Positions 12,752 through 14,537 of a DNA stretch of 23,815 bases are shown piece by piece (position 1 is the first letter of the stretch; the number at the start of each line of letters is the position of its first letter). A model generated the notes under the pieces. It was not told where the DNA came from. It searched no databases and saw only the letters and a program-made list of their open reading frames with translations. Made by a program: the position numbers and the translations under genes. Source of the DNA: a virus (lineage: Duplodnaviria > Heunggongvirae > Uroviricota > Caudoviricetes); IMG/VR virus record IMGVR_UViG_2850796239_000008. The stretch is one strand, 5' to 3'.

Positions 12752-13201
12752 GTTGTCGGCCTTGTGGCGATCGATTACCTGACGCTGATGAAGGCGGAAG
12801 CCGCGGAGCGTCGTGATATTGCTTTCGGGGATATCACAACGGGCTTAAAAAATCTCGCTAAAGAGCTGGACTGCGTGGTTTTACTTCTGACGCAACTTAA
12901 CCGAAAACTCGAGGACAGGGCAGATAAACGCCCCACACCAAGCGACAGTCGCGACACCGGGCAGATTGAACAGGATTGCGATGTGTGGATTGGGTTGTAC
13001 CGGGATGCTGTCTACAACCGTAACGCAGACTCTCAGCTTATGGAGCTGATTCTCCGTCTGAACAGGGAGGGAGCAACAGGAACAGCATACGCCCTGATGG
13101 ATAACGGTTCAGTGACTGATGTCAGCGCAGAGGATGCTGCCAGACGTCTGAGACTTGGTGGTCCGGCACGTAAACCCTACGCACAGACGGAGGATTTCTG
13201 A
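12752..13201 (+). pseudogene. DnaB-family helicase, 3' fragment
   Basis: Frame resumes as VVGLVAIDYLTLM... directly after the IS; joining 11487 to 12755 restores one continuous frame of about 476 aa. Confidence 0.8.
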
Positions 13202-13362
13202 TGCAGTCACTTTGTGATGTTCTGGAAAAAACGCTGCTTCAGTTCGGGCGGGGGGAAACGGCGGAGCAGAAAACACGAAACCAGAAGAATCTGGTTCATC
13301 TGAGAAAAATGATTGATGCAGCCAGGCTGGCTGAAAAGCTGGAAAAACAAAACCGGAGGTAA
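13201..13362 (+). CDS. Possible small protein, 53 aa
   Basis: ATG overlaps the helicase stop (TGATG); product [28 protein letters not shown]...; below the ORF-track size cut-off, so weak. Confidence 0.35.
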
Positions 13363-13367
13363 TTTTA

Positions 13368-14129
13368 ATGGAAACCGTTTTTGACGCACTGAAAGCAATG
13401 GGAAAAGCCACATCCACAGAACTTGCTGCGCGACTTGATATCAGTCGTGAAGAAGTGCTGAACGAACTATGGGAACTGAAAAAGGCTGGTTTTGTTGATA
13501 AAAGCGCGTACACCTGGCGTGTGGCTGATAACAACGTTCAGCAGGAACAGCCAGCGCAGGCAGAACTGCCGGAAGAAACCACCACAGCAACAGTAGCGAA
13601 AATCTCAGAGTGCGATTTAACCGCGACGATTGAACAACGCGGACCACAAACGGCTGATGAGCTGGCTACATTGTTTGGTACCACATCACGCAAAGTGGCT
13701 TCAACGCTGGCAATGGCAATCAGCAAAGGTCGTCTGATTCGCGTAAATCAGGGCGGTAAATTTCGTTACTGCATACCGGGCGATAATTTACCAGCAGAGC
13801 CGAAAGCAGCATCGGTAGCGGAAACTGATGGTAAGGCCTTTCCTCAGCCCGCAGGTGTTGCATTACCAGTACAGGAGGCTGCAACACAGGAAGATATTAA
13901 AACAGAAACGGTGGCGGACATTGTGCAGTCGCTGCCATTGTTCACCGAAACGCGAGCGGATGACCTGGTTTTACCATCGCTGCATATGGCAAACCGCGAA
14001 CTGCGTCGGGCGAAAAGTCATGTCCAGAAGTGGGAGCGTGTCTGCGCCGCGCTGCGGGAGCTGAACAAGCACCGGGATATTGTTCGACAGATTACTGATA
14101 TTTCTCGCCGTGTTGCATCGGAAAAGTGA
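13368..14129 (+). CDS. Hypothetical protein, 253 aa, with two winged-helix-like segments
   Basis: Segments [29 protein letters not shown] and [40 protein letters not shown] 11 nt upstream. Confidence 0.6.
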
Positions 14130-14144
14130 TTGCCGGAGGCACCT

Positions 14145-14537
14145 ATGGCAAAAGTATTTACACCAGAAGAGCGGGAAGAAGTGAAGGCGCGCATTGTGGA
14201 ACTCGTGCGCCTGAGCGGACGAGAAACTTTTCGACAACTGGCAGATAAAACGGGTGTCAGTAAGACCGCTATTCGTCGTTTATCTGGTGCGCTTGCGGCC
14301 AGTGGTGATGTCTGGCTCTCTGATTGCGGGGTATTTCCATCAGAGCAGGCGTATCGCGTATGGCGTAAGACACCGGAGAAGGCTGCTGACCCGACACTGA
14401 TTCGAAAGTTACCTGACGGAGAAATACGCCGCTACGACAGGCGCCTGAATATAATCTGTCGCGAGTGCCGGAAGAGCGAAGCTATGCAGCGCGTGCTGGC
14501 GTTTTATCAGGGGAAATTTCAGGAGGCGGTACTGTGA
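14145..14537 (+). CDS. Hypothetical protein, 130 aa
   Basis: ATG at 14145 with GGAGG at 5-nt spacing (track ORF begins at a TTG); product contains a CRECRK motif. Confidence 0.55.
   Translation: MAKVFTPEEREEVKARIVELVRLSGRETFRQLADKTGVSKTAIRRLSGALAASGDVWLSDCGVFPSEQAYRVWRKTPEKAADPTLIRKLPDGEIRRYDRRLNIICRECRKSEAMQRVLAFYQGKFQEAVL

Follow-up and report, generated by a model that had tools for sequence, protein, structure and literature searches.

The ren slot of a decayed Rac-like prophage: a candidate helicase-coupled microgene beside a YdaW–Ren-like gene pair

In phage lambda, ren lies between P and ninB, in the order O-P-ren, as the first accessory gene after the replication genes of the pR operon. 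Its product is named for resistance to Rex exclusion, and Toothman and Herskowitz reportedly found in 1980 that lambda ren mutants are sensitive to this exclusion. In the Rac prophage of Escherichia coli K-12, ydaW (b1361) also follows replication genes, ydaU and ydaV. Here we describe a locus comparable to both, the ren slot of a Rac-like lambdoid prophage, in a window of 23,815 nucleotides (nt), by which we mean the whole stretch of viral DNA that was analysed (Caudoviricetes; IMG/VR record IMGVR_UViG_2850796239_000008). The operon order in this window is a cro-like gene, a YdaT-like gene, an O-like initiator gene, a DnaB-type helicase gene and then three small co-oriented open reading frames (ORFs), each preceded by a GGAGG ribosome-binding site:

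ORF1, 13201..13362, + strand: 53-amino-acid (aa) microprotein, predicted helical, outside described families; its start is coupled to the helicase stop
ORF2, 13368..14129, + strand: 253 aa, YdaW family (DUF1627), with two winged helix-turn-helix (HTH) domains, disordered linkers and a conserved C-terminal helical region
ORF3, 14145..14537, + strand: 130-aa DUF977 protein ('LygF'), long-form homologue of lambda Ren; winged helix at the N terminus, conserved motif NIICRECRKSEAMQRVLAFY at the C terminus

A first-pass annotation made from the letters of the window had placed three compact, co-oriented ORFs of 53, 253 and 130 aa at these positions, the first of them coupled to the helicase stop, and all of this holds. 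It had also put them after the replication genes, in the position of the nin region, and that position is the lambda ren slot, at the start of the nin region. Two of its other claims need correction. The two larger genes, which it had called unassignable, are a YdaW/DUF1627 gene and a DUF977/Ren-like gene, leaving ORF1 alone without a family; and the three genes, which it had taken as one set, are a mosaic of two modules, in which ORF1 travels with the helicase and DUF1627 and DUF977 form a separate pair found behind three types of replication module.

The + strand between the helicase stop and the junction with an insertion sequence (IS), IS1, at 14681 holds no promoter-like and no terminator-like site, and the three genes are accordingly taken to be the distal stretch of the early-right operon. 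An Rfam scan assigned no RNA family to this region. A megablast query spanning 12720-14690 matched, over some part of its length, 4035 of 5426 complete E. coli genomes. Judged by their sequences, all three ORFs exceed what chance would produce. The locus is no new kind of system: the identity of the genes and their organisation are established, and the mechanism is one that we infer.

ORF3, ORF2 and their closest described relatives

Several comparisons place ORF3 with lambda Ren. First, ORF3 aligns over the whole Pfam DUF977 profile (PF06163, positions 1-134 of 134; 137.1 bits against a cut-off of 22.1, E = 5e-40). Second, it matches phrog_142, 'Ren-like exclusion protein', at E = 1.5e-42, and lambda Ren (from NC_001416) matches the same profile at E = 1.6e-41. 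Third, ORF3 and lambda Ren find each other directly by BLASTP (E = 4e-8, 28% identity), and the DUF977 profile aligns with lambda Ren by hhalign with a probability of 94.4% (E = 9e-8). For ORF3, these matches amount to the homology to nin-region proteins that the first-pass annotation had named as a refutation of its reading; none of the three ORFs matched the NinB to NinH, Q or N families in scans of Pfam, PHROGs and NCBIfam. Lambda Ren reaches no Pfam family, DUF977 included, and the link between the two is missing from that database. By this sequence evidence, DUF977 proteins are long-form homologues of lambda Ren, and the larger and diverse family of Ren homologues with a conserved motif that results would supply more material for genetics and structural work.

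Both ORF3 and lambda Ren have a winged helix and, after it, the motif N-[IL]-[IV]-x-[RK]-E-C-R-[KQ]-S-x-x-M-[QK]-R-V-L-A-x-Y. The CRECRK string that had been singled out at first reading sits at residues 105-110 of ORF3 and, in the alignment, is the core of this conserved Ren C terminus (ORF3, NIICRECRKSEAMQRVLAFYQGKFQ; PhiR30_1 Ren, NLIFKECRQSAAMKRVLAFYRGNFQ; lambda Ren, NLVFKECRQSAAMKRVLAVYG). ORF3 is the longer protein, with 130 aa against 96. Compared with lambda Ren, it has a further helix at the N terminus, about 30 inserted residues (FPSEQA...LPDGEIRRY) and one more cysteine, which creates a CxxC. Unlike in lambda, a DUF1627 gene here separates the replication genes from the Ren-like gene.

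An AlphaFold2 model of ORF3 gives a confident winged helix at residues 7-64, with a predicted local distance difference test (pLDDT) score above 90. The C-terminal part, which is the most conserved, is modelled poorly (pLDDT about 50) and may fold only with a partner. The ratio of nonsynonymous to synonymous substitution rates (dN/dS) against homologues is about 0.2, and ORF2 and ORF3 both fall within 0.15-0.21. The ATG at 14145, 7 nt downstream of its GGAGG, is also the start chosen by the Prokaryotic Genome Annotation Pipeline (PGAP) in a 99% identical intact homologue of the locus; an alternative TTG start at 14130 would add five residues, giving 135 aa.

ORF3 belongs to an already catalogued and widespread prophage family, of which we found 736 clusters. 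Its close relatives are labelled 'LygF' in phage records, a name that derives from the label of a Salmonella locus and says nothing about function. The LygF/DUF977 proteins of Rac-SA53, of the Shigella phages POCJ13 and 75/02 Stx and of mEp460 share Pfam family and position with ORF3 at 58-65% identity. As an allele, ORF3 is one of the less common: where the DUF1627 gene is near-identical, its partner is in most cases only 51-64% identical to ORF3.

Searches of structures added little to this placement. Foldseek with the ORF3 model against BFVD returned generic HTH proteins, none of them at E 1e-3 or better; when solved structures were searched by sequence, single queries found nothing significant and profiles gave generic winged-helix matches only. 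Two more specific assignments were rejected. A zinc finger at CRECRK would have two invariant cysteines only (C105 and C108), and lambda Ren has one. A Z-alpha winged helix, which binds Z-DNA or Z-RNA, is marked by an Asn and a Tyr in the recognition helix and a Trp in the wing (N173, Y177 and W195 in ADAR1), and these key residues are absent: profiles matched the Z-alpha domains of PKZ and ADAR1 weakly (E 5e-4 to 7e-3), the PKZ Asn falls opposite E/R in the DUF977 profile and R in ORF3, the Tyr opposite R and G respectively, and the wing lies beyond the end of the alignment.

The assignment of ORF2 is equally direct. The protein covers the full Pfam DUF1627 profile (PF07789, positions 1-155 of 155; 327.5 bits against a gathering cut-off of 28.1, E = 1e-98) and matches phrog_630 at 2.3e-130 over 252 of its 253 positions; its ATG lies 8 nt after a GGAGG, and its dN/dS against homologues is 0.15-0.19. 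DUF1627 is a small and mostly enterobacterial family (in 1.84 billion proteins, only 181 representatives of clusters at 50% have E 1e-3 or better; 2,532 clusters at 90% identity) and is very common in E. coli. ORF2 is thus one member of a widespread, already catalogued prophage family, and many E. coli genomes have annotated genes near-identical to it and to ORF3.

Residues 1-151 of ORF2 are 98% identical to K-12 YdaW. The K-12 protein is a truncated form of 186 aa that diverges past residue 151 and lacks the conserved C-terminal helical region, whereas ORF2 is the full-length form, as found in inducible phages such as Rac-SA53. The genes upstream also differ, a DnaB-type helicase gene preceding ORF2 and the DnaC-like ydaV preceding K-12 ydaW.

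The two winged-helix-like segments and the linker that had been read from the ORF2 sequence by eye are borne out by an AlphaFold2 model (mean pLDDT 76), which agrees with the architecture seen in an alignment of 46 members (22-94% identity). The winged helices occupy residues 1-52 and 81-135, with block-mean pLDDT of 83-93; the first linker is low-complexity, rich in Gln, Glu and Thr, and of low confidence, and the second is variable and rich in Pro, Ala and Glu. What the first reading had not mentioned is a confident C-terminal helical region at residues 205-252 (pLDDT about 92), with the conserved motif P-[ST]...REIRR[TA]K...LE[KR]. Hhalign relates the first winged helix to the second (95.7%), and the domain is thus duplicated within the protein.

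Against the Protein Data Bank (PDB), Foldseek matched the ORF2 model with tandem winged-helix proteins, namely ScpB, ESCRT-II, SelB and TFIIIC, at E 1e-4 to 1e-2. The ScpB matches (2z99, E = 1.6e-4; 3w6j, E = 6e-4) have template modelling (TM) scores of 0.20-0.30 and root-mean-square deviations of 11-14 Å owing to the flexible linker, and for the predicted model the resemblance is one of architecture only. Like ORF2, the condensin subunit ScpB has two consecutive winged helices, which in ScpB largely bind proteins; it shows no sequence similarity to ORF2 and lacks the long disordered linker and C-terminal helix, and no gene for a ScpA-like (kleisin) partner lies near ORF2.

ORF1 and the organisation across genomes

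The pairing of DUF1627 with DUF977 was followed in 80 IMG/VR contigs that carry a DUF1627 gene 94-100% identical to ORF2, a sample drawn by a single-protein search and so biased to close relatives. A DUF977 gene lies downstream in all 80, across a 15-nt gap in 79 of them, with 51-100% identity to ORF3. Upstream, the same pair stands behind three kinds of replication module: 6 contigs have helicase and ORF1, 66 have a DnaC-like gene and 7 have a YdaV-type gene; the last contig begins too close to tell. In these loci (L014-L093, with the pair at about 4001-5200), the DUF1627 genes are near-identical but most DUF977 partners are only 51-64% identical to ORF3 behind the same 15-nt spacer, and a recombination boundary therefore seems to lie at or just after the intergenic gap.

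Sequenced phages show that the pair can be broken. In a curated phage collection, 24 records hold DUF1627 and 25 hold DUF977, and both occur together, adjacent, in 12. DUF1627 stands alone in PPompW phages, and DUF977 alone in mEp460, where it directly follows a replication gene, and in Tritos, HannyBb and others. Other arrangements place a Ren-like gene directly before DUF1627 (locus L102) or a short Ren-like gene of 103 aa directly after helicase and ORF1 (L005).

More distant members were sampled through the neighbourhoods of seven DUF1627 representatives at 26-53% identity. Four of the seven follow lambda-P/DnaT-type replication genes. Where a small winged-helix neighbour is present, it is a Ren-like protein upstream in L102 and a phrog_24072 protein (108-114 aa) downstream in L104 and L106. 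The remaining three genes (26-39% identity; L097, 1277-4256; L099, 1526-4268; L100, 1343-4268) lie in P2-like early operons, where each shares 11 nt with the 3′ end of a gene for a RecE-type exonuclease VIII. These RecE-coupled relatives occupy the place that recT has in Rac, which hints at a recombination link that no current annotation reflects.

ORF1 follows a different partner. Its ATG overlaps the TGA of the helicase gene by one base, the A of TGATG, with a GGAGG 6 nt upstream, and a DnaB helicase of one clade directly precedes ORF1 in every context fetched, including the 6 IMG/VR loci. The gene after it varies: DUF1627 and DUF977 follow in the window and in L008, and the short Ren-like gene follows in L005. 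ORF1 therefore belongs to the helicase/replication module and not to the DUF1627-DUF977 pair. The general order across these genomes starts with the replication genes, continues with ORF1 (where the helicase is of this clade) and an optional DUF1627 gene, and ends with a Ren-like gene; it is lambda O-P-ren with additions. Two organising points emerge: DUF1627 and the Ren-like gene stay together as a stable pair whichever type of replication module precedes them, and a small, largely unannotated gene accompanies one helicase clade.

We regard ORF1 as very probably a real microgene. A search of 5.8 billion clusters returned homologues in 9 clusters, of 53-60 aa and 61-98% identity, and an alignment of 10 sequences has 22 invariant positions. 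Frame and length are kept against two homologues at 59% and 67% nucleotide identity, with differences over codon positions 1/2/3 of 18/10/30 and 18/7/22; read in frame, the ratio of nonsynonymous to synonymous differences per site (pN/pS) comes to 0.40, whereas other frames give values of 0.8-2.2. In each of the three contexts examined (the window, L005 and L007), ORF1 retains its Shine-Dalgarno site and its start remains coupled to the helicase stop. The alternative, that ORF1 is no gene and that 13202-13367 separates the helicase gene from ydaW as a non-coding spacer, can point to the tiny size of the family, to the absence of any match in Pfam, PHROGs, NCBIfam or PADLOC or, by tblastn, in 50,697 phage records, and to the omission of ORF1 from the PGAP annotation of the intact homologue, but a spacer would be hard to square with the constant frame and length, the third-position excess, the in-frame constraint, the invariant residues and the conserved start signals, which make it very improbable. 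ORF1 already stands as 'hypothetical protein' in public protein sets.

ORF1 is absent after the related helicases of phages ZF40 and mEp234. Kinship with NinA was considered and rejected: the NinA of mEp234 is a 26-aa hydrophobic peptide that is likewise coupled to the helicase stop but is unrelated to ORF1. In Pectobacterium phage ZF40, an unannotated 159-aa protein, gp16 (L095, 2981-3460), directly follows the related helicase, and its C-terminal half looks like a winged helix by eye (LTKTQILAALDK...). If that winged helix is real, the post-replication slot may often hold small HTH proteins of unrelated sequence.

Proposed functions and the state of this copy

We favour, with a probability of about 0.4, the reading that ORF2 and ORF3 are early accessory proteins that keep phage replication or recombination activity from triggering abortive-infection or exclusion systems. 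We hold this view because Ren lets lambda escape Rex exclusion and because the K-12 YdaW fragment scored as a blocker of RcaT, the toxin of retron-Sen2. The RcaT hit comes from an overexpression screen that listed ydaW with other blocking prophage genes (bioRxiv 10.1101/2020.06.22.160242), and the fragment that scored consists of exactly the two winged helices common to ORF2. For Ren, a two-hybrid assay shows interaction with Rex proteins (bioRxiv 10.1101/2021.04.19.439022). Under this proposal, both proteins would be non-essential and made together with the replication proteins, their winged helices would bind nucleic acid or partner proteins, and the pair would stop the phage's own replication or recombination activity from setting off abortive infection or exclusion.

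Several observations weigh against this proposal. The ydaW-RcaT result comes from plasmid overexpression of a truncated protein and has no follow-up in the text consulted. No rexAB-like genes were noticed in the window or in the intact homologue, so that a Rex-type target is not evident. PADLOC assigned the three ORFs to no defence family, giving generic winged-helix matches only (Csa3, CARF-associated HTH and capH, at E 9e-5 or weaker). The translational coupling of three of the seven distant DUF1627 relatives to a RecE-type exonuclease points to DNA metabolism and not to counter-defence, and the occurrence of DUF1627 and DUF977 each without the other in sequenced phages means that the two need not act together. 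Finally, ORF3 and lambda Ren are only 28% identical, and Ren has neither the N-terminal helix nor the central insert found in DUF977.

The state of the copy in this window is a separate matter from the general role of the genes. Breakpoints were placed by blastn and by aligning the window to E. coli FDAARGOS_943 (L003, NZ_CP065615), which holds the intact homologue, and the other assignments around the early-right operon come from profile scans, ORFs, IS ends and matches to consensus:

8461-8937, − strand: cI-like repressor gene (profile scans)
9015..9044, + strand: sigma-70-like, pR-like promoter before the cro-like gene (consensus match only)
9034-9276, early-right operon: cro-like gene
9273-9695, early-right operon: YdaT-like gene
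9786-10541, early-right operon: HTH_36 initiator gene, O-like
10531..11487, + strand: N-terminal part of the DnaB-type replicative helicase gene (Pfam DnaB and DnaB_C), interrupted by IS600
11488..12751, + strand: IS600 (IS3 family, 1264 bp) within the helicase gene, with transposase ORFs; 99.4% match to the annotated IS600 copy in L003
12752..13201, + strand: C-terminal part of the helicase gene (149 codons; Pfam DnaB_C), its stop overlapping the ORF1 start
14595..14681, + strand: first 29 codons of the next operon gene (118 aa in the intact homologue), cut off by IS1
14682..15449, − strand: IS1 (768 bp), with InsA and InsB ORFs and IS1 ends, joining the early-right operon to tail and baseplate genes

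The helicase start is taken from PGAP homology, the first in-frame ATG being at 10504. IS600 is flanked by a 3-bp target duplication (11485-11487 and 12752-12754), so that the helicase gene is a pseudogene here and ORF1 borders no more of it than the last 149 codons. A stretch of 144 nt separates the end of ORF3 from IS1, which cuts the operon, and homology to the intact locus stops at 14681; tail and baseplate genes lie beyond, and the nin, Q, lysis and head regions are missing. The element is a decayed, defective Rac-like lambdoid prophage, and in this genome the three genes are probably passengers of a dead one. Its burden of IS600 and IS1 hints at a source in Shigella or in closely related E. 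coli; among species-representative genomes, none matches the IS1 junction exactly.

That they are also inert, no longer usefully expressed and not yet decayed, is possible but on balance doubtful. The split of the helicase gene 1.7 kb upstream in the same operon, the removal by IS1 of everything from the next gene to the tail module and the scarcity of promoters (the only candidates upstream of the set are the site at 9015-9044 and one inside IS600, with none between the IS and the set) would all suit silent genes. Yet all three reading frames are intact, identical copies of ORF2 and ORF3 occur on other contigs, and the transposase genes of IS600 point in the same direction as the set, which makes read-through possible. 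The outcome would in any case bear on the state of this copy and not on the general role of the genes.

Of the other proposals for that role, one makes ORF2 and ORF3 sequence-specific transcription factors that bind operators and tune delayed-early (nin/Q) or host genes. The first-pass annotation had named regulators or host-takeover functions as frequent contents of such a slot, and this is plausible for the set. Both proteins have confident winged HTH domains and match the ArsR, MarR, Lrp and TrmB families weakly, although the matches to regulator families lie below curated cut-offs except for a narrow pass by HTH_20 (29.0 against 27). K-12 YdaW is counted among predicted transcription factors of unknown function (PMC9308461), and DUF977 domains fused to Fic proteins have been presumed to be a DNA-binding module (PMC2686095). 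By contrast, a search for operators and iterons within 12752-14681 found no convincing repeated or palindromic candidate, the best fold matches of ORF2 (ScpB, ESCRT-II and SelB) bind proteins or RNA, and lambda Ren is not known as a regulator. A role for both proteins as operator-binding factors is unlikely in our judgement.

A further proposal would have the genes assist replication or recombination directly, DUF1627 as an adaptor at the replisome or recombination complex, the Ren-like protein as a helper of replication and ORF1 as a helicase cofactor. It draws on the constant position of the genes, which close replication modules of no fewer than three types, on the 11-nt overlaps of distant DUF1627 genes with RecE-type genes, on the coupling of ORF1 to the helicase stop in every context fetched and on the description of Ren as 'likely involved in DNA replication' (bioRxiv 10.1101/2021.04.19.439022). 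The pair, however, is found regardless of which replication protein is encoded upstream, which speaks against a specific partner there. One or other gene is absent from sequenced phages, and the related helicases of ZF40 and mEp234 do without ORF1; Ren, moreover, is dispensable for the P-lethality and replicative-killing phenotypes of lambda (PMC3640518). We consider it improbable that such direct assistance is what the genes provide.

A bolder extension of the accessory, anti-exclusion reading, and one that we rate as quite a long shot, is that DUF1627 and DUF977 are the two proteins of a counter-defence module that is widespread in the lambdoid prophages of E. coli and Shigella and has so far gone unrecognised, with ORF1 as a new cofactor of DnaB helicases. 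If so, ORF2-type proteins would neutralise retron-type or other abortive-infection effectors, Ren-like proteins would mask replication intermediates from Rex-like sensors, and the RecE-coupled DUF1627 relatives would mark a general hiding of phage DNA-processing intermediates.

Other features of the prophage

The left arm, 99.5% identical to that of L003, carries an integrase gene and genes for an AAA ATPase, Gam, RecE and a Rha-like protein. With names taken from the PGAP annotation of L003, RecE (3700-5640, − strand) is followed by a Gam-like gene and a 365-aa AAA ATPase gene (2323-3725, − strand), and not by recT. Beside these genes, Rfam identifies the RalA small RNA at 2088-2266 (+ strand; 207 bits, the gathering score being 170), which is the RNA antitoxin in RalR/RalA, a type I toxin-antitoxin pair of Rac.

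Two other Rfam matches, a C4 antisense RNA (6933-7020, − strand; 78.6 bits) and the Hfq-binding RNA isrK (7045-7121, − strand; 66.8 bits), fall within the 5′ part of the Rha-family regulatory ORF (6333-7172, − strand), a P1/P7-style arrangement of immunity RNAs in a lambdoid prophage. Inside the O-like initiator gene, two 17-nt direct repeats, AGYGCAGGAGTTGCACC, lie 24 nt apart (10116-10132 and 10140-10156); none of 100 shuffles gave two matches, and the repeats are candidate origin iterons.

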